From positions 1 through 35,894 of IMG/VR virus record IMGVR_UViG_3300048856_000028: a DNA stretch of 35,894 nucleotides; one strand, written 5' to 3'. The translations under genes were made by a program, and so were the position numbers. Under the pieces are notes generated by a model that was given only the letters and a program-made list of their open reading frames with translations, was not told the origin of the DNA and did no database searches. Positions 1-11,890 of this stretch are shown one piece after another. Source of the stretch: a virus (lineage: Duplodnaviria > Caudoviricetes). The first letter of the stretch is position 1. The number at the start of each line of letters is the position of its first letter.

Positions 1-609
1 CAATAGTCCTTGGGCTAACAGGCCGCTGGTCAGCTTGCCGGCATCCGCGAGACTCCGGAGTTGGTCCACGCTGGTACCGAAGGCTTGCGCGATTGCTTGG
101 GCCAGTCCGGGTGCCTGCTTGATAATCGCGTCGACCCCCTCGCCGTCGAGGCGGCCAGCGGCCATCGCCTGGCCCACCTGCTCCGCCGCGGCTTGGCGTG
201 CCGCGGGATCGCCACCGCCGATAGCAGCCGCCTTGCCAATGAGTTCGGTGAGCTTGAGCGAGTCGCGCAGTTCGAGCCCGAGCCCCTTGGCCCCGCGTTG
301 AACGAGTTGGAAGACGTCGGCGACGCCGGCGTATTCCTGTCGCGCCCGCTGGGCGATCTGGAAGATCTCGTTCAGCGCCGCCTGCTGCTCCTGGAGGCTG
401 TTGGTCGCGAGGCCGACTCGCGTTTGCACGGCCGTCCATTCGTCCGCAATCTTGGCGGCGGCAATGACGGACACATTGGCGGCGATCTGACGCGCAAGCC
501 CAGCGATGGCAAGGTATCCCTTGCCGATCTGCTGGACCTGCTGCATCTGTTGCACCTGTTGGACCACCTGCAAGCGCAGGACCGCGACCACTTGCGAAAT
601 GTTTGTCAT
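1..609 (-). CDS. Tape measure protein, N-terminal part (runs off window start; not in ORF track)
   Basis: Manual translation from ATG 609: MTNISQVVAVLRLQVVQQVQQMQQVQQIGKG...IADEWTAVQTRVGLATNSLQEQQAALNEIFQIAQRARQ...QVGQAMAAGRLDGEGVDAIIKQAPGLAQAIAQAFG, a typical tape-measure domain. Open to base 1; ATGA overlap with the upstream stop. Confidence 0.85.
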   Translation of the reverse strand, partial: MTNISQVVAVLRLQVVQQVQQMQQVQQIGKGYLAIAGLARQIAANVSVIAAAKIADEWTAVQTRVGLATNSLQEQQAALNEIFQIAQRARQEYAGVADVFQLVQRGAKGLGLELRDSLKLTELIGKAAAIGGGDPAARQAAAEQVGQAMAAGRLDGEGVDAIIKQAPGLAQAIAQAFGTSVDQLRSLADAGKLTSGLLAQGLL

Positions 610-854
610 TTTTTTCCCGCCATGCTGTTGGCCGCCTTTTGCTGCGCGGCCTCCTGCGCATCCATCAGCGCGTTCAGTTTCAGGATGTCAACCAGGTCCA
701 CGCAGCCGCCCCTGATCTCGCTCACGCTGATGTGCCCCGCGATGACGGGGCGCCAGATCACGAGTTCCGCGTCGAAGTCGGGACGGAATCGCCCGACAGC
801 TTCGCCGCGAGGCCTTGGACCGAGCCAAAACGGCCGGCCCAGCGCAGAAAAAAA
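606..854 (-). CDS. gpT-like -1 frameshift extension of the tail assembly chaperone
   Basis: The -1 frame is open from slippery T TTT TTT (854-848) to TGA 608-606: ...FRPDFDAELVIWRPVIAGHISVSEIRGGCVDLVDILKLNALMDAQEAAQQKAANSMAGKK*. It lies between chaperone and tape measure. Confidence 0.7.
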   Translation of the reverse strand, partial: FFSALGRPFWLGPRPRGEAVGRFRPDFDAELVIWRPVIAGHISVSEIRGGCVDLVDILKLNALMDAQEAAQQKAANSMAGKK

Positions 855-1249
855 TCGGCGAAGTTGAAACGGATGATCTGGAACATCAGCTCCAGGATGT
901 CGCCCGCGTCGCGGAATGCCAGCGTGCGCATTTCCTTGGTGAGCTTGGACTCGCGACCGTTGATCGAGACCGCGACGAATTCCGGATCGAGGAGCCGGTT
1001 TGCCCAGGACTCCAACGAAGCGCCGTCGAGCTTGCCCGACAGCTCCCGAACCGCCTCGGAGAACGTGGTATCGGGCGTGGCGTTGGCCTGGTCACCCGGC
1101 CCGCCGGCGAAAGCACCTTCGAGCAGATGGCCCACCGCCGGCAGAATGTCGCGCTGCAGATCGCCGAAGATTCGCAGGGCAACGAACGGATCGATCTTGC
1201 GGATCATGAATTCGGCGTCGCCGATCGTGACGTTGGTAACGAGACTCAT
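758..1249 (-). CDS. Phage tail assembly chaperone (gpG-like)
   Basis: 163 aa between tube and tape measure; C-terminal ...NFADFF on a T7 run. Confidence 0.8.
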   Translation of the reverse strand: MSLVTNVTIGDAEFMIRKIDPFVALRIFGDLQRDILPAVGHLLEGAFAGGPGDQANATPDTTFSEAVRELSGKLDGASLESWANRLLDPEFVAVSINGRESKLTKEMRTLAFRDAGDILELMFQIIRFNFADFFLRWAGRFGSVQGLAAKLSGDSVPTSTRNS

Positions 1250-1677
1250 GCGGCATTACCTCCCACGAAGAACGCGCTGTTGCCCGTCTCGATGGTCCAC
1301 TCGCGGGTGCCCAACTCGGCGGCGAACTCGGCAGTCGGGTACTTCACGACCCAGGCCTCGGACGAGGTGAACACGGTGCGGCCGCGCAGGTCCGACACGG
1401 CGATCGGAAACAGGCCCGCGCCGCCGCTGAGGCGGTCGGCTTGCAGCAGGGCCGACAGCACGTCGTTGCCTGCGCTGGTCTGCTGCAGCGTAATGGTGAC
1501 GCGGCACCGGCGATCCGACGACATGGCGCGTGCCACCTCGCCGTCCGCGCCGACCACGGACGTCACGCCGTCGCCAACTTCCTCGATGCTGATAAAGGTG
1601 TCCTCGGCGAAGCCGCTCAGGGTCGCCGCGCCGACGGTGACGTTGACGCGGGACGGATCATAGGTACGAGTTGTCAT
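1246..1677 (-). CDS. Contractile tail tube protein (DUF3277-like)
   Basis: TYDPSRVNVTVG...GFAEDTFI...VGADGE...ITLQQTS...REWTI motifs; follows the sheath gene. Confidence 0.85.
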   Translation of the reverse strand: MTTRTYDPSRVNVTVGAATLSGFAEDTFISIEEVGDGVTSVVGADGEVARAMSSDRRCRVTITLQQTSAGNDVLSALLQADRLSGGAGLFPIAVSDLRGRTVFTSSEAWVVKYPTAEFAAELGTREWTIETGNSAFFVGGNAA

Positions 1678-1689
1678 GGAAAGCTCCGA

Positions 1690-3045
1690 TTAGAGGGCGT
1701 AGGTCAGGTTGCCGCGGATCGTCACGGCGTGGATGGCGCCGGCCAGGCGCGCGGTAAACGACACGTCGTTCAGCACGCGGTTCGCCTTGTCGTTGAACGG
1801 GACGCTGGCGGCAAGCGGGGCGCTGATGGTGTAGGACGGAATCTTGCGGCCGTCTTCGCCCAGCTCCTCCGGCGCGATGCCGCCGCGCGACACTCCAAGG
1901 TCCAGTGCCTTGCGCATGGCGGTGGTGATGATCTGGATGCCGCCATCGGTGTAGGGCACCTTGCCGTTGGCGTTGACCAGCGCGGATACGACGTTGATCT
2001 TGACTTGCTCGGCGAGCCAATCGCGGAAGCGGATCACATCGATCCATTCGCCCGCCGCGACCTTGCCACCTTGCGTGATAGCGAAGTTCCGGAACGGCTC
2101 AAACGTATTGGCGTTCTTGTTGCGCGCCGCGATCGATTGCCCCTCGCTGAGGTTGTCGAACGAGATGCCGGCGAGCCGCAGGTTGGCCCACGTCTCGCCC
2201 CCCGGGTAGAAGGTGAAGCGATTGCCGGCCACGGCGGCCTCCAGCCATTCCGATGCAGCGGCCGCGTGGTACCAGACGGCGGTCCGGAAGAACTGCTTCT
2301 GTTGCAGCTTCGATGCCAGGTCGGTCTCCGACCCGCCGTCGATGATGCCGGCCTGGCCCGACGACACGCCCATCAGCTTGGCGTTCGACTCGACCCATTC
2401 GGCGGCCGCAAGAATGTCGGCCTCCGCGCGGCTGGCGAGGACGACGCCATACCAGTCGTCGTTCTCGGCGCGGCAGGCCGCCAGCGCGTCGACAACGGGT
2501 TCTGTGGCTTCCAGCGGCTGGAGCGCAAGGTTGCCTTGGAGTGCCACCGCGATCGCCGCGCCGTCCACGTCTGCCGCGACGGTGACGGTCGAGCCCACAG
2601 CCGTCGTGGTGACCGGCGCGGCAGTTGCATTGATCGCCGTTGCCAACGCTTGAGCGATCGTCGTGGCACTGTCAGCCGGGGTGGCCGCATAGCTCGCCGT
2701 CACGCTTTGCGGTGCCCCGCTGGCGTCGTTCCACTGCAACGTGACGTCGTACGCCGAGTCGGATGCACGGGTCACTGCCACATCGAAACTGTCGGCAGCC
2801 TGCCGGCCGATAAAGCAGCGGTAGATGGTGGGAATCTGCTTGAACACGTCACGCACCGCCATGTACAGCGGCGACGAGCTGGACAGGCCCAATTCGAGCA
2901 GCTCGTTGGCCGACGTCACGGCCATCACGCGGCCGAGGCCGAGCGTGTGTGGGCCGACGACGAGCAGGTCGGAGAAGGACTGTTCCTTGATTGCGGTGGT
3001 GTTCAGGTTGATCTGAACGTTGACGATACGGTCGAGTGTTGCCAT
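1690..3045 (-). CDS. Contractile tail sheath protein (DUF3383-like)
   Basis: Start MATLDRIVNVQI at 3045 after a GGAG RBS; GEWIDVIRFRDWL, KVPYTDGG, ARLAGAIHAVTIRG motifs. Confidence 0.88.
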   Translation of the reverse strand: MATLDRIVNVQINLNTTAIKEQSFSDLLVVGPHTLGLGRVMAVTSANELLELGLSSSSPLYMAVRDVFKQIPTIYRCFIGRQAADSFDVAVTRASDSAYDVTLQWNDASGAPQSVTASYAATPADSATTIAQALATAINATAAPVTTTAVGSTVTVAADVDGAAIAVALQGNLALQPLEATEPVVDALAACRAENDDWYGVVLASRAEADILAAAEWVESNAKLMGVSSGQAGIIDGGSETDLASKLQQKQFFRTAVWYHAAAASEWLEAAVAGNRFTFYPGGETWANLRLAGISFDNLSEGQSIAARNKNANTFEPFRNFAITQGGKVAAGEWIDVIRFRDWLAEQVKINVVSALVNANGKVPYTDGGIQIITTAMRKALDLGVSRGGIAPEELGEDGRKIPSYTISAPLAASVPFNDKANRVLNDVSFTARLAGAIHAVTIRGNLTYAL

Positions 3046-3055
3046 ACAAGGCTCC

Positions 3056-3085
3056 AAAAAAAATAGCCGCCCGAGGGCGGCTTTG
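3056..3085 (-). terminator. Intrinsic terminator inside the late operon
   Basis: Minus strand AGCCGCCC-TC-GGGCGGCT followed by ATTTTTTT. Confidence 0.65.
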
Positions 3086-3123
3086 GTCTTCCAGTCCACG
3101 GTTGTGTGGACCGTGATCAGCGG

Positions 3124-3603
3124 TCAGGGGCGAGCCCCGTCGTCTGTGATCCCATCTGCGTTCACCGTTTCGATCAGACCGACTTCTTCGTTGAGCGTGA
3201 CGGTGTAGCGGGCGCTTAGCGCGAGCTGCGTGCGGGGCTCGTACGTCGCGTCCTCCAGCAGCAGGGGCACCTGTTGGGTCTGGCCGATGGCGAAGATGGC
3301 CAGGTCGAGCGCTTCGGCGTGGAGCAGCGCCTTCTCCATCTGCAGACGCTGCGCCAGGGTGTCCATGGCGTCCATGCCGCCGGCGCCGAAGTACGTCAAT
3401 TCGAGCTGTGCATCGCGATGGCTGCTGACGGCCCGTACGCCATCCGGCGCAACGGGCCCAAGATGCAGCGGCAAACGGCTGGACTCCTGCAGTTTCAGCG
3501 CGATATAGGGCTTGGTCGGCGGCACTGCATCCTGCTCGGCAAATATCACGGGCACAGTGGCTTCGGCCGAGATCAGTTCGTGAAGGGCCTGTTCGGGTGT
3601 CAT
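3124..3603 (-). CDS. Tail terminator / neck-completion protein
   Basis: 159 aa immediately upstream of the sheath; PVIFAEQDAVPPTKPYIAL N-terminus typical of myovirus tail terminators. Confidence 0.65.
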   Translation of the reverse strand: MTPEQALHELISAEATVPVIFAEQDAVPPTKPYIALKLQESSRLPLHLGPVAPDGVRAVSSHRDAQLELTYFGAGGMDAMDTLAQRLQMEKALLHAEALDLAIFAIGQTQQVPLLLEDATYEPRTQLALSARYTVTLNEEVGLIETVNADGITDDGARP

Positions 3604-3716
3604 GGTTCACTCTTTTGGAAGGCTGCGCATCGCATGGGATTGCAGCGGACTGCCACAGGTCCTTGCGCGCATCGCGAGAAGCCGCGCCATGCGAATGAAG
3701 CGCGCCGGCGAGAAGC

Positions 3717-3748
3717 AAAAAAGCCCGCTCGATAGCATCGGCGGGCTT
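3717..3748 (-). terminator. Intrinsic terminator in the late leader
   Basis: Minus strand AAGCCCGCCGATGCTATCGAGCGGGCTTTTTT. Confidence 0.7.
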
Positions 3749-3865
3749 GGTGCACATCAGCGGTACATCGGAATATCTGTAGACGCTGCATGCCGCGCGG
3801 GCTGCGCCGCATGACTCATGGGTATGCGGCCTTGGCAGAACGGCATCAATAAAAACTCTCGCCGG

Positions 3866-3898
3866 AAATGCAGAAGCCCCCAACCAGTGGGGGCCTCA
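3866..3898 (-). terminator. tR'-like terminator just downstream of the late promoter
   Basis: GCCCCCA/TGGGGGC stem (3876-3894) followed on the minus strand by TTCTGCATTT. Confidence 0.55.
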
Positions 3899-3924
3899 GA
3901 TACATTGACTGCGAGTCTGGGAGA

Positions 3925-3953
3925 AATATACAAGGCTTGTCGCAAAGGCGCAA
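3925..3953 (-). promoter_or_regulatory. pR'-like sigma70 late promoter
   Basis: Minus strand TTGCGC-N17-TATATT directly after the Q-like stop codon; GCGACAA direct repeat in the spacer and upstream of -35. Confidence 0.6.
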
Positions 3954-3968
3954 GCTTTTTCTTTGTCG

Positions 3969-4604
3969 CTATGCGTGGACGGCCGCCACCATCGGTGGCT
4001 CGTACTCGGTCGCTTCCGCAACGAGCCCGTGCGCGATGAACATCGGCTCCAGGCGGGATAGCGCAAGATTTTCCAACGCGCGGAAATTTGCCTCCATCCA
4101 CTTGGCCGCACGGAATATCTTGTCCTTGCTGACCTTGTGCTTTTCGCCCAGGGCCCGTACGGTCATGCCCTCACGCTGCTCGCGCGGTAGGTAATGACGC
4201 GCGGCCAGCTCCAGCAGCAGCGTGCCCGAGGTCAATCCCGACGAGCGCCGTGCATACAACGCCAGCCGCTTGCACCCGTCCAACTTCTCCGGACCAACCG
4301 CGAAACGCGCCAGTACGGCCGCCATCTCCTGGCTCGGCAGGCGATCCCGCGCGGCAGCCGTCACCATGCTGCACTGAGCCCTGACTTCGTTGGGCGCGAG
4401 ACCGCCGAAGTTGACGGTGCCGCTCCCTCCGTTCTCGCGTAACCGCTCCAGCCACGCTTGTTGCTGCCCCGTGGGCCGCTCGAGGTCTTCCAGCAGCCGA
4501 ACCAGCATATTTCGAAATGGCTGCCCGTGCCGGGGCGGCATGGACAGGATCAGATAGGACACGCGCAGCGCTTGTTCGGTGCTTGTGAAAATAGCTTCAG
4601 TCAT
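3969..4604 (-). CDS. Late gene regulator, Q-antiterminator-like DNA-binding protein
   Basis: Last early gene before the late promoter; C-terminal HTH-like TVRALGEKHKVSKDKIFRAAKWM. ATG 4604 has a GGGGA RBS; longer starts to 4709 are possible. Confidence 0.6.
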   Translation of the reverse strand: MTEAIFTSTEQALRVSYLILSMPPRHGQPFRNMLVRLLEDLERPTGQQQAWLERLRENGGSGTVNFGGLAPNEVRAQCSMVTAAARDRLPSQEMAAVLARFAVGPEKLDGCKRLALYARRSSGLTSGTLLLELAARHYLPREQREGMTVRALGEKHKVSKDKIFRAAKWMEANFRALENLALSRLEPMFIAHGLVAEATEYEPPMVAAVHA

Positions 4605-4712
4605 TGTTTCGTTTCCCCGTGGAACTGTCATGGCTTTACGTGATTCCTCCGCGTGCCGTTCAGCAGCGCGTTCGTCCAAACCGTGTTGCAGCCGATACCC
4701 GCTCGTCACTCT

Positions 4713-6107
4713 TCATAAATCCGCGACAACGTCGCGCCTGCGTGCCACCGCGCCGGCATTGAGAAACGGCAGCGGGCCGGTCCATTCGTCGAACCGGGTC
4801 ACCGCCCCGCGGTACCGCAGTGGCACGTCGCCGAGCGCACCGTTACGCTGCTTGCGGATCATCACTTCGGCGTAGCCCCTGGACGCCGGGTCTGCTGGCT
4901 GGTACATCTCCGCACGGTGCACCAGCAGCACCACGTCGGCGTCCTGCTCGATATCGCCGGAATCTCGCAGATCCGCCAACTGCGGCTTCTTGTCAGGTCG
5001 TTCTTCGCTCTTGCGGCTCAGTTGCGAGAGCACGATCACGGCGGCGTTGAGCTCCTTGGCCAAGGCCTTCAATCCGCGCGAGTACGCGCCAATTTGCTGC
5101 GTGCGCTGCTTCTCCTCGCCACCAGTCATCAAGCCGAGGTAGTCGACGACAAGCACATCCAGACCGTATTTGCGCTGGTGTGCCTTGGCTTTCATCCGGA
5201 CATCAATGAGTGTCAGTGCGGGCGTATCGTCGACCGCGAAGTTCAGCGTCTCGATCGCGGCGAACGCGGACTTCATCCCGCTCAACGCGCCGTCGTCGTG
5301 CTGGTTCAGCCGGCCAAGCAACTTGGACAAGGCCACCTCGCCCCGGGTCGCCACAGCGCGGGCGACGATTTCCTGATCCGCCATTTCCATCGACAGCAAC
5401 AGCACGCTGTAGTTGGTGGCCATGTTCAAACCGATGTTCGTCGTGAGAGCGGTCTTGCCCATCGACGGCCTGCCCGCGACGACCACCAGATTGCCGCGAC
5501 GAACACCGCCGTTCAGTGCTTTGTCCAGGGACGGCAGACCCGTCGGGATTGCCGATTCCCCCGTGCCCGCGATGCGCTCGTCCACCGTCTGCGCAAACGC
5601 CGGCAGCAAGTCGCGCAGCATCCTCGGCTCCTTGCGCACGCCCGTCTGCGCAAGGCGAGCCAGCATGGTCTGCGCCCAGTCCAGTATCTCGGCGCCCTTC
5701 ATCGCGCTGGGTGTTTCCACCAGTTCCTGCACCCTTCGCACTGTGGCCAACGTCTCGCGGAGCAAGGCGTGCTCGCGTACGGTCTCCGCATAGCGGGCGA
5801 TGTTGGCCGCGCTGGGCGTGCTGTGCGCCAAGTCGGTGAGATAGGCCAAGCCGCCCACATCCGCTGCCCTGCCCCGTTCCTGCAGCGCCTCGAATACGGT
5901 AACGACGTCGGCCGGTTTACCGGCAACGATAAGGCCGAGAATGCGGGAGTAGATTTGCCGGTGGTCGTGTCGGTAAAAGTGCGCTGGCTCCAAGCCCCCG
6001 ATGCGGTCGAACGCGTTGTTGTCGAGCAGCAAGCCACCCAGCACGGCCTGCTCGGACTCCACGCTCCACAGTGCCCGGCCCAGTGCAATATGGTCGGACG
6101 CGGTCAT
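4713..6107 (-). CDS. Phage replicative DNA helicase, DnaB family
   Basis: SVESEQAVLGGLL, Walker A GRPSMGKT, VVDYLGL, LSQLSR, DLRDSGDIEQDAD, KQRNG; full length. Confidence 0.95.
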   Translation of the reverse strand: MTASDHIALGRALWSVESEQAVLGGLLLDNNAFDRIGGLEPAHFYRHDHRQIYSRILGLIVAGKPADVVTVFEALQERGRAADVGGLAYLTDLAHSTPSAANIARYAETVREHALLRETLATVRRVQELVETPSAMKGAEILDWAQTMLARLAQTGVRKEPRMLRDLLPAFAQTVDERIAGTGESAIPTGLPSLDKALNGGVRRGNLVVVAGRPSMGKTALTTNIGLNMATNYSVLLLSMEMADQEIVARAVATRGEVALSKLLGRLNQHDDGALSGMKSAFAAIETLNFAVDDTPALTLIDVRMKAKAHQRKYGLDVLVVDYLGLMTGGEEKQRTQQIGAYSRGLKALAKELNAAVIVLSQLSRKSEERPDKKPQLADLRDSGDIEQDADVVLLVHRAEMYQPADPASRGYAEVMIRKQRNGALGDVPLRYRGAVTRFDEWTGPLPFLNAGAVARRRDVVADL

Positions 6108-6922
6108 GCGGTCACCTGGCCGTGATAGCGGCCTTCGCGGATCTTCGCGAAATTCTCGGCCTTGATCATCCAGTCGAGGCTGGCAACGAAGGGCTTGCGG
6201 CCATCGGCGATCTTGGCGCGGCCGGTAAGGAATTCCGACTCGGCGACATAGTTAAAAAACCTGCGCCAGTAATCTAGCTCCTGGCGCTTCGCATCCTCGT
6301 TCCAACGCGCTCGAAGCGCCTGGGCACGGGTCGGCGTCCAATCGCGAATACCAGGGCACATGGGCAGCAGTTCGTGGTACAGCGCAACAATGGCCTGATG
6401 CGGGCAAGTCAACCTGCTGGGCTTCGGGGCTGCGGCGCAGAGCGCCACGGCGGAGCCGGCGCCGCCGTCAGCGACCACCACGTCAGTGGTGGTTATGGTC
6501 TCTTCTGGCTGATGGCTCATGGTTGATGGCTCATGGCTTAGGTTTTCTTCGCTTTGCGTATCAGTACCCGACGCTAACCCAATCGGTTTTTCCTCCGTTT
6601 CGTTTCGCTTTGGCCTGCCACCGCGTTTGCCGTTGGCCCGGTTTGCTTCGCTCTGCGCGCTGGCGATTTCGATTTCGCGCTCGCATCGCGCTTGTCTCCA
6701 TGTGTCACCGTCAAGGTTGAAGAACTCGGACAACACCGCTTCGACAGCGTGTAGTTCTTCCTCGGCGCGCGCACCGATGAGGCGGGCCGCCTGATTGGCC
6801 GGTATGCCGCCTTCGCGCGAGTAGTAGACGTCCATCAACCGTGCGTACACGCCGTGCTCGAGAAGCGACAGATGCGCGGCGTCCTTGATGTAGTCGCCGA
6901 TATGGCGCTTGTAGAAATTCAT
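6104..6922 (-). CDS. Phage replication initiator, YdaU/DUF1376 family (O-like)
   Basis: MNFYKRHIGDYIKDAAHLSLLEHGVYARLMDVYY, NGKRGGRP, C-terminal SLDWMIKAENFAKIREGRY; overlaps the DnaB start. Confidence 0.9.
   Translation of the reverse strand: MNFYKRHIGDYIKDAAHLSLLEHGVYARLMDVYYSREGGIPANQAARLIGARAEEELHAVEAVLSEFFNLDGDTWRQARCEREIEIASAQSEANRANGKRGGRPKRNETEEKPIGLASGTDTQSEENLSHEPSTMSHQPEETITTTDVVVADGGAGSAVALCAAAPKPSRLTCPHQAIVALYHELLPMCPGIRDWTPTRAQALRARWNEDAKRQELDYWRRFFNYVAESEFLTGRAKIADGRKPFVASLDWMIKAENFAKIREGRYHGQVTA
6506..6655. repeat. Putative replication origin repeats within the initiator gene
   Basis: Five tandem 7-mers TGGCTGA TGGCTCA TGGTTGA TGGCTCA TGGCTTA (6506-6540); three iteron-like 16-mers at 6541-6556, 6597-6612 and 6640-6655. 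Confidence 0.55.
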
Positions 6923-7011
6923 TCACTGCTCCGTGCGGTAGATCGGACCACTAGCAGCCCCGCCGTCTCCCGCTTCCATTCAGTTCTGGGGCCTCCGTGC
7001 GATCGATTGTA

Positions 7012-7076
7012 TGACCATATCGGTAACACATCAACGAAAATTTGTTACCATATCGGTCTATTTACCTTTTTGGTCA
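7012..7076. promoter_or_regulatory. Three repressor operator sites (OR-like)
   Basis: TGACCATATCGGTAA (7012-7026), TTACCATATCGGTCT (7045-7059), TTACCTTTTTGGTCA (7062-7076): ACC-N5-GGT palindromes between divergent genes. Confidence 0.75.
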
Positions 7077-7087
7077 GTACAGGTCCA

Positions 7088-8005
7088 ATGGCGCCCATGA
7101 AATCAATCAAGGAAATCCGCCGGGAGAAGCTCGCGGTGGCGATACGGGACAAGTGCGAAGGCAATCAGTCGCGAGCCGCGGAAGGGCTCGGCTATTCCAC
7201 GCCGTCGCTGGTGAATCGCTATTTGAACGGCGCCAAGGACATCGGCGACCGCACGGCGCGCAAGATCGAAGAAGTGTTCGGCTATCCGACGTACTGGATG
7301 GACTCTGAGGCCGCGCCCGCGGTACCGGAGGATCAGGCCTTGGAAATGGCAGCGCGAGCCGCGCTTCTATTCCGGCAAACTGCTTCCACTCCCGCCGCGA
7401 TTGCCGCGTTGGTGAAGATGCCCGTCAGCGACGTTGAGGAATGGGCCCAGGGGCTGCGTAAGCCCACGCTCGATCAGGCCATCGCCATCCAGGAGCGGTA
7501 TCAGATCAATGCCGTATGGCTCATGACAGGCAAAGGCCTGCCCTCTCCCACCATTGCCCACAACGACGACTGGAACCCGATTCCGATTCCTCAGCACGCT
7601 TACAAAAAGATTGCGGTAGTAGCAATGGCTCAGCTTGGCGACAACGGAAATTTCTGCGACCTCGAGTATCCCGTCGGCCATGGCGACGGCTACCTGCACT
7701 TCATCAGCGCCGACCCGGATGCCTACGGATTACGTTGCGCCGGCCAGTCGATGGAGCCTCGCATCAAAGACGGCGAGTTCGTCGTCGTCGCACCCAACCA
7801 TCCGGTCACGAATGGCGACGAAGTTTTGGTGAAGTCCCGCGACGGACGGGTCATGGTCAAGGTGCTCGGCTACGCCAGAGACGGGTACACGACGCTGCTG
7901 TCGGTAAACCAGACGCATAAGCCGATCCGGATCGTGTCCGCAGACATCGAGCGAATGTCTTTCATCGAGGCGATCGTGAAGCCGTCGGCCTGGCGCCCGG
8001 ACTGA
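7088..8005 (+). CDS. CI-like repressor with two tandem HTH domains and an S24 autopeptidase domain
   Basis: HTH1 (NQSRAAEGLGYSTPSLVNRYLNG...IGDRTARKIEE..WMD), HTH2 (PAAIAALVKMPVSDVEEWAQGLRKP...AVWLMTGKG), catalytic GQSMEP and VMVK. Start 7088 or 7097. Confidence 0.9.
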   Translation: MAPMKSIKEIRREKLAVAIRDKCEGNQSRAAEGLGYSTPSLVNRYLNGAKDIGDRTARKIEEVFGYPTYWMDSEAAPAVPEDQALEMAARAALLFRQTASTPAAIAALVKMPVSDVEEWAQGLRKPTLDQAIAIQERYQINAVWLMTGKGLPSPTIAHNDDWNPIPIPQHAYKKIAVVAMAQLGDNGNFCDLEYPVGHGDGYLHFISADPDAYGLRCAGQSMEPRIKDGEFVVVAPNHPVTNGDEVLVKSRDGRVMVKVLGYARDGYTTLLSVNQTHKPIRIVSADIERMSFIEAIVKPSAWRPD

Positions 8006-8157
8006 TCGGGCAGGTAGGAATTCCGTAGTCTCTTGACGGATATCTCAACCGGGGCGCGCCATTGAGCTCTGGCGATCCGGGTTCTTGATATTTACGTCAA
8101 CCTAAAAATCGGCAGCCGGTGTTGGAGCGGCTTGCACAGAAGGCCCGCCACGATATA

Positions 8158-8173
8158 CTGTACATCCATACAG
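8158..8173. promoter_or_regulatory. LexA (SOS) box
   Basis: CTGTACATCCATACAG matches CTGT-N8-ACAG; overlaps the -10 of TTGCAC-N16-TATACT. Confidence 0.85.
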
Positions 8174-8189
8174 TATTCATGAGCGCACG

Positions 8190-8453
8190 ATGCCAGCCAC
8201 CTTCCCCGCTAAGTCCGTCTCTCTCGAAATCCAATTCTTCGGAGATCTCCGGGACGAATTCCATGTGCCCTGCGATGCCGTGACCGTCCACACGAACACG
8301 ATAACAGTGCGAGGCTCTCAGGCGTGGCGCTTGGCCTCTGTCGGTTGGACGCCGGATTCCCTCTGCTTCCATTGCTACGAGCAAAGCCACCGATTCCCGG
8401 TTGGCCGTCCGACAATAGTGGACGATCGGACAGCGCGTTTTCCCTTGCTATGA
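8190..8453 (+). CDS. Small SOS-regulated hypothetical protein
   Basis: 87 aa ORF directly downstream of the LexA box and promoter. Confidence 0.55.
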   Translation: MPATFPAKSVSLEIQFFGDLRDEFHVPCDAVTVHTNTITVRGSQAWRLASVGWTPDSLCFHCYEQSHRFPVGRPTIVDDRTARFPLL

Positions 8454-8541: not shown

Positions 8542-9069
8542 ATGACAGAAATAAAACTTGCGACGGAACGAGATTTGGGCAGGCTAAGTGAGATAGAGAA
8601 ATCGGCCGCGCAAGCCTTTCTGCAAATTCCGGAATTGTCACGGCTGGCTGCTGGAGAGGTTCAGTCAATCCAACGCCACCGTGAACTCATGCTTTTAGGC
8701 TCGAACTGGGTCGCGCTTACTGATCGCAATATCTCAGTCGGCTTTCTCAGCGCTGAACGGCTGGGCGATGAGCTTCACATATGGGAATTGTCGGTTCATC
8801 GCAACCATCACGGTGCAGGGATCGGGAAAGCGCTGATGAAGCGTGCCATTCAGGAAGCGCGCGTTTGGGGTCTGCGGGCTGTGACACTGACAACGTTTCG
8901 GGACGTGCCGTGGAACGCCCCGTTTTACCAGCGTCTAGGTTTTGAAATCTTGAGTCCGGAGGAAACGGACGAGAGACTGTGCCGTGCACTTCGGCATGAG
9001 CGGGCATCCGGATTGCCAGCGGAGCGGCGTTGCGCAATGCGCTTGCTTCTCTCCAAAGTCAGCGGCTAG
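8542..9069 (+). CDS. GNAT family N-acetyltransferase
   Basis: ELSVHRNHHGAGIGKAL acetyl-CoA motif; TLTTFRDVPWNAPFYQRLGF. Confidence 0.9.
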   Translation: MTEIKLATERDLGRLSEIEKSAAQAFLQIPELSRLAAGEVQSIQRHRELMLLGSNWVALTDRNISVGFLSAERLGDELHIWELSVHRNHHGAGIGKALMKRAIQEARVWGLRAVTLTTFRDVPWNAPFYQRLGFEILSPEETDERLCRALRHERASGLPAERRCAMRLLLSKVSG

Positions 9070-9224: not shown

Positions 9225-9272
<48 letters not shown>

Positions 9273-9386: not shown

Positions 9387-9415
9387 CCTTTCCTGGCAGC
9401 CCGGCACTCGATATA

Positions 9416-9431
9416 CTGTACATCCATACAG
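9416..9431. promoter_or_regulatory. LexA (SOS) box
   Basis: CTGTACATCCATACAG, identical to 8158-8173. Confidence 0.85.
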
Positions 9432-9449
9432 TATGTTTACGAATGCATC

Positions 9450-9758
9450 ATGGGCAACAGCAAACTGGCCAACGGCTGCCAAGCCGCTTCCCATCCCGGG
9501 GCTCTGGCCGACCCTTCCCTTAACGGCATCCTTCCCCAAGTGCCAGGCGACTGCATTGCCGAGGCGAGCCTCCAATTGGCGCAGCCGACCCTGGCCGGCC
9601 CACTCCACCAGGAAGTCGAAATCGACGCCGGCCATGTCGGCCGCGTGCGTCTGTTCTTCGAACGGAAGACGGCCCGCCGCGGCAGGCATTCGCATCAGTT
9701 CTGGGCGGCGTACCGGGCAGAGCCTGTGTATGGGTCGTGGGATTCGGACGTGTCGTAG
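9450..9758 (+). CDS. SOS-regulated hypothetical protein
   Basis: 102 aa ORF after the LexA box and upstream of SRAP. Confidence 0.6.
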   Translation: MGNSKLANGCQAASHPGALADPSLNGILPQVPGDCIAEASLQLAQPTLAGPLHQEVEIDAGHVGRVRLFFERKTARRGRHSHQFWAAYRAEPVYGSWDSDVS

Positions 9759-11548: not shown

Positions 11549-11890
11549 ATGGAATATAAGGGTCGGGTCTTTGCCGCCGCTGCCGGCATTTTCTTTACCG
11601 CGGCCGTGGACGCTGCCACCACGACACGCTGCGTAATGTCGCCGCCGGAATACCCGGCTAGTGCGCTGCGCTCGTGGGAACAAGGGGAAGCAAGCGTCCT
11701 GATGTCACTGGCGCCGACCGGTGAAGTCGAATGGGTACGAGTAGACCGGCCGAGCGGAAATTCGGCGCTTGATGAGGCCGCCGCGGCCGCTGCATGGAAG
11801 GCGAAGTGTGCCCCCGGCCCAGCCGAACGAGTGATGTGGCCGGTGGACTACAGGATCGTCACAAAGAAGGGCCCGCAGCTGTTCCCGTAA
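11549..11890 (+). CDS. Stand-alone TonB C-terminal domain protein with signal peptide
   Basis: Signal-like N-terminus, then PPEYPASALRSWEQGEASVLMSLAPTGEVEWVRVDRPSGNSALDEAAAAAAWK; no proline-rich linker. Confidence 0.85.
   Translation: MEYKGRVFAAAAGIFFTAAVDAATTTRCVMSPPEYPASALRSWEQGEASVLMSLAPTGEVEWVRVDRPSGNSALDEAAAAAAWKAKCAPGPAERVMWPVDYRIVTKKGPQLFP

Follow-up and report, generated by a model that had tools for sequence, protein, structure and literature searches.

A headless contractile-tail locus of Cupriavidus that has kept a phage replication module: a likely tailocin with a predicted capacity for amplification in place

R-type pyocins and R-tailocins, which derive from P2 or Mu, are characterized by a contractile-tail operon that starts with the terminator or collar gene, a lysis cassette, a repressor together with a late regulator, and fibres with variable tips. 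The same features are found in a headless contractile-tail locus that begins in the virus record IMGVR_UViG_3300048856_000028 (one record of 35,894 bases, analysed as a whole and called the window). However, this locus is of other ancestry, its tail being of the DUF3383/DUF3277 type, and it contains an intact replication module and a predicted origin. An earlier note on this DNA had pointed out that classical R-pyocin-type tailocins lack replication genes. In the locus described here, initiator, DnaB, and origin-like site are all intact. We consider it fairly likely that the locus is a conserved, headless prophage derivative, presumably an R-type tailocin, which is predicted to amplify in place.

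Replication genes within a tailocin locus are already known from rhizoviticin of Allorhizobium vitis (PMC10811719). Rhizoviticin is also encoded by a headless locus at a tRNA gene, which has kept a CI-like repressor, an initiator, and a DnaB-like helicase. Its induction is recA-dependent, and deletions of the initiator and of DnaB abolished antagonism as well as late transcription, so that both genes are needed for late expression and killing. The authors regarded their locus as an early transitional stage and left the mechanism open, and amplification is not proposed in the sections consulted (PMC10811719). In contrast to the locus described here, rhizoviticin has an F-type tail and a sigma-like late factor, and its locus still contains an almost intact early region and the remnant of an integrase, whereas the headless Cupriavidus locus combines a contractile DUF3383 tail with an early region of three genes, and its retention of replication genes has been long-lived and repeated.

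A domesticated lambda-like initiator-helicase module is also present in Bartonella, where BaROR has its origin in the O-like gene, replicates in situ, and is under core-gene-like selection (PMC3610622). However, the DNA amplified by BaROR goes to a gene transfer agent that has a capsid and is encoded at a separate locus, whereas no cognate capsid was found for the window's locus and the module lies in one operon with the tail. In the Alp system of Pseudomonas aeruginosa the DNA-damage-induced protein AlpA binds within a promoter and enables read-through of intrinsic terminators into lysis genes, but, unlike the locus in the window, the system contains neither tail nor replication genes (PMC7969949). 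A full-text search of the open-licence literature retrieved no described tailocin from Cupriavidus, Achromobacter, or Alcaligenes. Neither these loci nor the self-amplification of tailocins were found to be described, which does not establish their absence from print; the available sections of PMC9836290, PMC4374763, PMC11524443, PMC10299305, and the PhageTAILor preprint contain no statement on tailocin self-amplification.

The 44 open reading frames of the window were scanned against Pfam and PHROG. The headless locus occupies positions 1 to 8005 and, apart from the CI-like repressor gene on the plus strand (7088..8005; HTH and S24 autopeptidase domains, Pfam), it is encoded on the minus strand. 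The gene order is O-like DUF1376 replication initiator (6104..6922; Pfam and PHROG), DnaB-like replicative helicase with intact motifs (4713..6107; PF00772 and PF03796), a protein of 211 aa (3969..4604), 365 non-coding bases, tail terminator as the first gene of the late operon (3124..3603; PF23961, phrog_7975), contractile DUF3383 sheath (1690..3045; phrog_205 tail sheath, E 4e-104), a DUF3277/KPP10 Orf10-type protein that we take from position and family to be the tail tube (1246..1677; PF11681), tail assembly chaperone (758..1249; PF21822), and tape measure (PF20155, E 1e-36). The contig end leaves only the 5' part of the tape measure gene (1..609), the orthologous products having 598-625 aa. 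The small open reading frame between chaperone and tape measure (606..761) was called in the window, G004, and G001, and it is probably a second chaperone segment. The headless gene order proposed in the earlier note was thus confirmed by both profile collections, and it is collinear in the orthologous loci G001 and G004. Blastn against 50,697 phage records retrieved pieces of DnaB and sheath at 3% cover and nothing more.

The strongest sign that the initiation of replication, and not the proteins alone, is maintained appears to lie in the DNA of the initiator gene, although this sign is no measure of amplification. The predicted origin, which consists of 7-bp repeats and a hairpin on the minus strand, is located within this gene (6479..6568), as lambda-type origins are located in the O gene (PMC3610622). 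Synonymous differences are near zero in the initiator linker of all three lineages with headless loci (Cupriavidus, Achromobacter, and Alcaligenes), although amino acids vary there, and this valley indicates selection on the origin-like DNA itself. The permutation p for the lowest window was 0.024 for Cupriavidus (3 sequences), <0.0005 for Achromobacter (15 sequences), and 0.005 for Alcaligenes (5 sequences); because the limits of the valley were picked after the scan, these scan-level values are the fair ones, and together with the non-independence of the sequence pairs this speaks for a cautious reading. The degeneracy-matched variable columns in the linker, observed versus expected, were 2 versus 12.6, 2 versus 16.1, and 1 versus 15.9. 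The valley at 6479-6568 also agrees with the origin near 6.5 kb that had been proposed before. The hairpin recurs in the initiator of the headed prophage G027. A repeat finder detected no family with more than two copies near the origin, and it is conservation, rather than the number of repeats, that argues for the predicted origin. The GC skew of the window was uninformative. At the sequence level, the locus has the parts of a run-off replication module, namely an initiator-helicase pair, a predicted origin within the initiator gene, and no excision.

Comparison with headed relatives revealed what has been lost. Headed DUF3383 prophages of Cupriavidus, Achromobacter, and Bordetella (L022, L024, L128, L140) have collinear tail, baseplate, and lysis genes, and their sheath is up to 77% identical to that of the window, but they also carry terS, terL, portal, protease, capsid, adaptor, neck, and closure genes. 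Two headed relatives were mapped in full, the second prophage of G001 and G002. In both, the early order is cI, cro, cII, initiator, DnaB, RusA and nin-like genes, Q, and late promoter (the names cro, cII, RusA, and nin are our assignments, made from position), and the late order is terS, terL, portal, morphogenesis protein, protease, decoration protein, capsid, adaptor, neck, closure, and terminator; a left arm is also present. Four separate blocks are gone from the headless element, i.e., the left arm with the integrase, cro/cII, RusA/nin, and terS through head closure, while initiator and helicase were spared between two of them. The gap that replaces the head genes (3604-3968) has a length of 365 bp, as described before, and a tblastn search with 11 cognate head/neck proteins detected no head remnant in it (best E 0.47). 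Genes for cro/cII, nin functions, and an integrase, which had been reported missing next to the repressor, are absent from cI up to a tRNA-Pro remnant at 9226-9272. In one point the earlier note has to be corrected: it counted lysis genes among those missing from the gap, but in DUF3383 prophages of this family the place of the lysis cassette is after the tail fibre. In the orthologues the cassette lies left of the window's contig end, and therefore lysis genes have not been deleted from the headless locus.

Scans with the sheath yielded 20 viral and 10 genome loci, some of them duplicates. Head/neck genes lie upstream in 24 of these 30 loci, four lack them (L010, L021, L014, L016), and two are too short upstream. 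L021 of Cupriavidus respiraculi LMG 21510 (G001) and L010 of the provirus record G004 have nucleotide identities of 80% and 87% to the window, respectively, and are collinear with it over all junctions; from this orthology we infer that the host belongs to Cupriavidus and is close to C. respiraculi. Nine sequencing runs were covered, all of them as assembled contigs of uninduced metagenomes. Contigs of runs X2 and X4, which were counted, are arranged in the same way and are roughly 88-95% identical, while X3 was in pieces and X1, which may be the source of the window, was not counted. When metagenomes were scanned with an alignment of the antiterminator, 3 loci with 59-63% identity were obtained. 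In 78 Cupriavidus genomes, searches with the host flanks detected neither a close sister species nor an empty site (best non-self identity ~80-86%).

Beyond the point at which the window ends, G001 and G004 continue with tape measure, hub, spike, wedge proteins, fibre, fibre chaperone, and a lysis cassette of endolysin (phrog_90), a putative holin of 110 aa without a family match, and a DUF2514 spanin-like gene. DUF1232 and DUF2188 genes follow in both, and then host genes in G001. Across the window, G001, and G004 the contractile tail set of sheath, tube, tape measure, baseplate, fibre, and chaperone is complete. Head and terminase genes or an adjacent integrase, which might have lain left of the tail genes, were not found in the complete G001 and G004 loci. 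Both have the same flanks, tRNA-Pro on one side and DUF2188/DUF1232 on the other, and the fibres have conserved N-terminal anchors and exchanged distal tips. Extracellular contractile injection systems (Afp, PVC, MAC) are recognized by an AAA+ ATPase, an Afp16-type cap, and cargo effector genes, none of which was called in the loci of G001 and G004. Of the two products that had been considered, a tailocin or an injection particle, the tailocin is supported by the gene content, and nothing indicates an effector-injecting system. The conserved anchors and exchanged tips of the fibres, the fixed site, the lysis cassette, and the lack of a cognate capsid detected with one query in 9 of 10 carrier genomes fit a tailocin, which we regard as the probable product of the locus.

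The retention of replication genes is not confined to Cupriavidus. Alcaligenes was reached via L014 and L016, in which cI, cro, an O-like initiator, a lambda-P-like loader, and two small genes precede terminator and tail, and a third lineage was found with a family sample of 401 genomes (21 matches, 18 retrieved). The Achromobacter order is cI, cro, DUF1376 initiator, P-like loader, two small genes, terminator, and sheath (headless DUF3383 loci L129, L130, L132, L134-L136, and L156-L165). Of 62 Achromobacter species genomes, 15 have the complete locus, and the nine tested genes are intact in all 15; controls with capsid and closure had zero matches in these loci. The initiator has a median dS of 0.95 and a dN/dS of 0.16, the loader a median dS of 0.90 and a dN/dS of 0.09. 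The fibres (~470-815 aa) differ in their tips, and the downstream host gene was the same in the five loci checked. In Alcaligenes, O and P are intact in 5/5 loci, with dN/dS values of 0.07 and 0.05. Genome G084 (L123) has a contractile tail at the site, while G316 (L141 3338-9093) and G333 (L143) have the same cI-cro-O-P block followed by a headless lambda-like non-contractile tail at the same site. This swap of R- and F-type tails behind a fixed replication module was a side observation; the F-type tube cluster has 49 members. The Q position of L130 (8743-9323) and L014 (4181-4806) is taken by a pair of small genes (~100-126 aa; phrog_20616, 82-93 aa) under strong purifying selection. Between the two genera these small genes are homologous, but they have no relationship to the antiterminator in the window; their position makes them candidate late regulators.

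A sheath tree was built from 41 rows (13 headless, 27 headed, one outgroup), leaving out duplicates, partial or distant rows, and nine Achromobacter copies. Each headless clade is nearest to headed prophages, and the headless state needs three changes, which are forced by starred branches. By itself, the tree does not distinguish gain from loss; three separate losses of the head are favoured because the helicase/loader and late-regulator families differ between the lineages.

In pairwise Nei-Gojobori-type estimates for the three Cupriavidus copies (window, G001, G004), dS was 0.2-1.1 and all genes were under purifying selection. The dN/dS values were 0.04-0.08 for tube (0.04-0.06), sheath, antiterminator (0.04-0.05), and CI (0.06-0.08), and 0.11-0.20 for DnaB (0.11-0.17) and initiator (0.12-0.20) at a dS of 0.45-1.08. 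The tail terminator had higher values (0.22-0.47). As a check for relaxed selection on the side of the terminator that faces the head, terminator and sheath were compared; the ratio of terminator to sheath dN was 2.9-6.5 in headless Cupriavidus, ~2.9 in Achromobacter, and 0.6-3.5 in headed prophages (24 informative of 25 pairs), so that the ranges overlap. Because the junctions are common to all copies, we infer that this divergence post-dates the loss of the head. Strain-specific decay, an outcome that the earlier note had named as fatal to its proposal, is contradicted by the common junctions and the purifying selection.

Several observations weigh against selected amplification. The distribution is patchy, with the locus in 1/78 Cupriavidus, 15/62 Achromobacter, and 4/14 Alcaligenes species genomes; in a wider Burkholderiaceae sample the sheath was found in 5 of 397 scored genomes, and G001 alone was headless. 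The locus of G390 has decayed (its initiator is truncated and the tail is gone), and G135 has an integrase beside its headless contractile-tail locus (L124 10022-15486). The latter lies at the Alcaligenes site and has a different initiator family, a DUF6475 loader, and a short repressor without a peptidase domain; it may be a younger form of the locus or one that has been re-supplied. An origin that does not excise generates additional forks at a cost, and classical pyocins do without such forks. Bulk amplification is compatible with the purifying selection and the conservation of the origin-like site, but these cannot distinguish it from a replication-coupled or regulatory use. Particles, killing, induction, and a raised copy number are predictions from sequence. 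The patchiness and the decay in G390, and also in G277, would suit a recently grounded prophage with replication genes as transitional leftovers, which is how the rhizoviticin authors read their own locus (PMC10811719). We regard this as very improbable and already largely refuted: a dS near 1 has been gathered after common deletions with every frame intact, no head remnant is left in the gap, the origin-like DNA is constrained, and the sheath tree has three parallel outcomes.

Another explanation is that the locus encodes a tailocin in which the role of initiator, helicase, and origin-like site is to start the early/late cascade, by origin binding or limited local replication, and not to raise the copy number. 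The reduction of late transcripts in the rhizoviticin deletion mutants, read by the authors as regulation (PMC10811719), is in agreement with this idea, and in Cupriavidus, which lacks cro/cII, an initiator bound within its own gene could be the sole negative feedback. However, a purely regulatory role needs neither an intact ATPase helicase nor a lambda-P-type loader, and the replication slot has been filled by four unrelated initiator/loader pairs. We therefore consider this explanation unlikely, and fairly likely that in-situ amplification is the reason why the replication module has been kept.

The retained terminator, which docks heads, and the headed prophages that adjoin the headless locus in some genomes raise the question of whether the tails supply the heads of others, as part of a split gene-transfer agent or as tail donors to helper phages or capsid-forming satellites. 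However, adaptor, neck, and closure genes are absent from the locus, and the neighbouring prophage in the window is a siphophage of another neck family. The capsid, portal, and terminase of a gene transfer agent are missing, and a genome-wide check with one query, the cognate capsid, found it in only one of 10 carrier genomes, in a separate full prophage. A role in supplying heads is thus improbable.

The neighbourhood of the locus also bears on what replication might be selected for. The 3' remnant of tRNA-Pro(GGG) (9226..9272, minus strand), of which a core of 46-47 nt is also present in G001 and G004, was found by alignment, ARAGORN having reported no tRNA in the window; an intact tRNA-Pro lies beside the pheT cluster in G001. 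The remnant is the att site of the neighbouring prophage and the right boundary of the region. The Cupriavidus element thus occupies a tRNA-Pro hotspot and adjoins headed prophages in the window and in G001, and the O/helicase module of Bartonella has been kept to amplify flanking DNA (PMC3610622). Replication could therefore have been selected because it amplifies the flanking DNA, which lysis would then release or neighbouring prophages would package, with the tail as a second, independent benefit. But the neighbours differ among all three Cupriavidus copies, and replication genes and tail are under one operon and one repressor in three lineages, which leaves little probability for this explanation.

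The elements that would control a self-amplifying tailocin induced by DNA damage are present as genes and sites, i.e., CI with its S24 domain, operators, and an AlpA-type antiterminator. Three operator-like palindromes (TKACC-N5-GGTH at 7012, 7045, and 7062; 7012..7075, strand not assigned) are kept in 3/3 copies. The first is overlapped by an early promoter-like site (7006..7034, minus strand), for which position and conservation argue, as the promoter scan gave two sites versus 2.5 expected by chance. The 211-aa protein has a profile match to AlpA (7XYA, E 2.4e-11), the sole match at E<=1 among 177,635 PDB sequences, and its predicted fold (pLDDT 84) matched 7XYB in Foldseek (E 1.8e-5, TM 0.59/0.72); it is a putative AlpA/Q-type antiterminator. 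Downstream of its gene, 100 bases match the late-promoter region of the headed Cupriavidus prophage G002 at 77-80%. The late promoter-like site in this region (TTGCGC-17-TATATT, 3925..3953) was read by eye and not flagged by the consensus scan. It is followed by a promoter-proximal, tR'-like hairpin (3876..3894) and a leader hairpin with a T-run (3716..3747), both seen in alignment A1. All three are on the minus strand and constant in 3/3 copies, while the spacer between them drifts. Another intrinsic terminator-like hairpin lies between tail terminator gene and sheath (3065..3082, minus strand).

We propose that DNA damage would lead to RecA-dependent self-cleavage of CI, a trigger suggested by the S24 domain. 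The early promoter would then transcribe only initiator, DnaB, and antiterminator; the initiator would bind the repeats in its own gene and load the helicase, resulting in run-off replication of the non-excising locus. The AlpA/Q-type protein would carry the polymerase past the leader terminators, and the late operon, from terminator, sheath, and tube to baseplate, fibre, and lysis genes, would be read at a now raised copy number. Terminator-capped tails would be freed by lysis and kill related bacteria picked by the fibre tip. As far as sequence evidence reaches, it supports the interpretation of the earlier note.

A few other features of the region were observed. A LexA-box-like palindrome (8156-8175) precedes an open reading frame of 87 aa (8190-8453; feature 8156..8453, plus strand), which is 93-97% identical in the orthologues and had zero matches in Pfam, PHROG, and Atlas. 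An identical palindrome precedes another small open reading frame (102 aa) in the stretch 9414-9758, and several Cupriavidus prophages carry homologues at their att-proximal end. The slot between element and tRNA remnant varies by copy, with a GNAT acetyltransferase in the window (8542-9069), a 520-aa tail-spike-like gene in G004 (L066 627-2189), and, in G001, a membrane protein of 774 aa that follows the remnant of a lysis cassette (L062 12334-14658). Positions 9400-35894 are a separate siphoprophage of the lambda/HK97 type, integrated at tRNA-Pro(GGG), with its early region beyond the contig end. It encodes terminase, portal, ClpP protease, capsid, a lambda-like tail, holin, lysozyme, spanin, and SRAP; the head genes found at 28-34 kb are its own and are not part of the headless locus. 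One of its morons encodes a TonB C-terminal domain as a stand-alone protein, the N-terminus of which is signal-like (11549-11890).

Tailocins have usually been described as having shed replication, and the loci described here exemplify its long-term and repeated retention. Amplification in situ would explain both the rhizoviticin result and the pattern found here. A wider proposal, for and against which we see about equal weight, is that self-amplifying tailocins are a recurrent, convergent class: in Burkholderiales, at least three times, a prophage would have lost head, neck, and excision genes, while a working origin and an initiator, together with a helicase or loader, would have been kept to raise gene dosage for weapon production by onion-skin replication. 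The benefit of this amplifier would be large enough for it to persist through exchanges of the tail (R or F) and even of the initiator family at one site. The selection on origin-like DNA makes the open mechanism of rhizoviticin experimentally addressable. In addition, the loci represent predicted tailocins of a further phage ancestry in three genera, which include drug-resistant opportunists (Achromobacter), and the fibre tips across the loci constitute a natural library.

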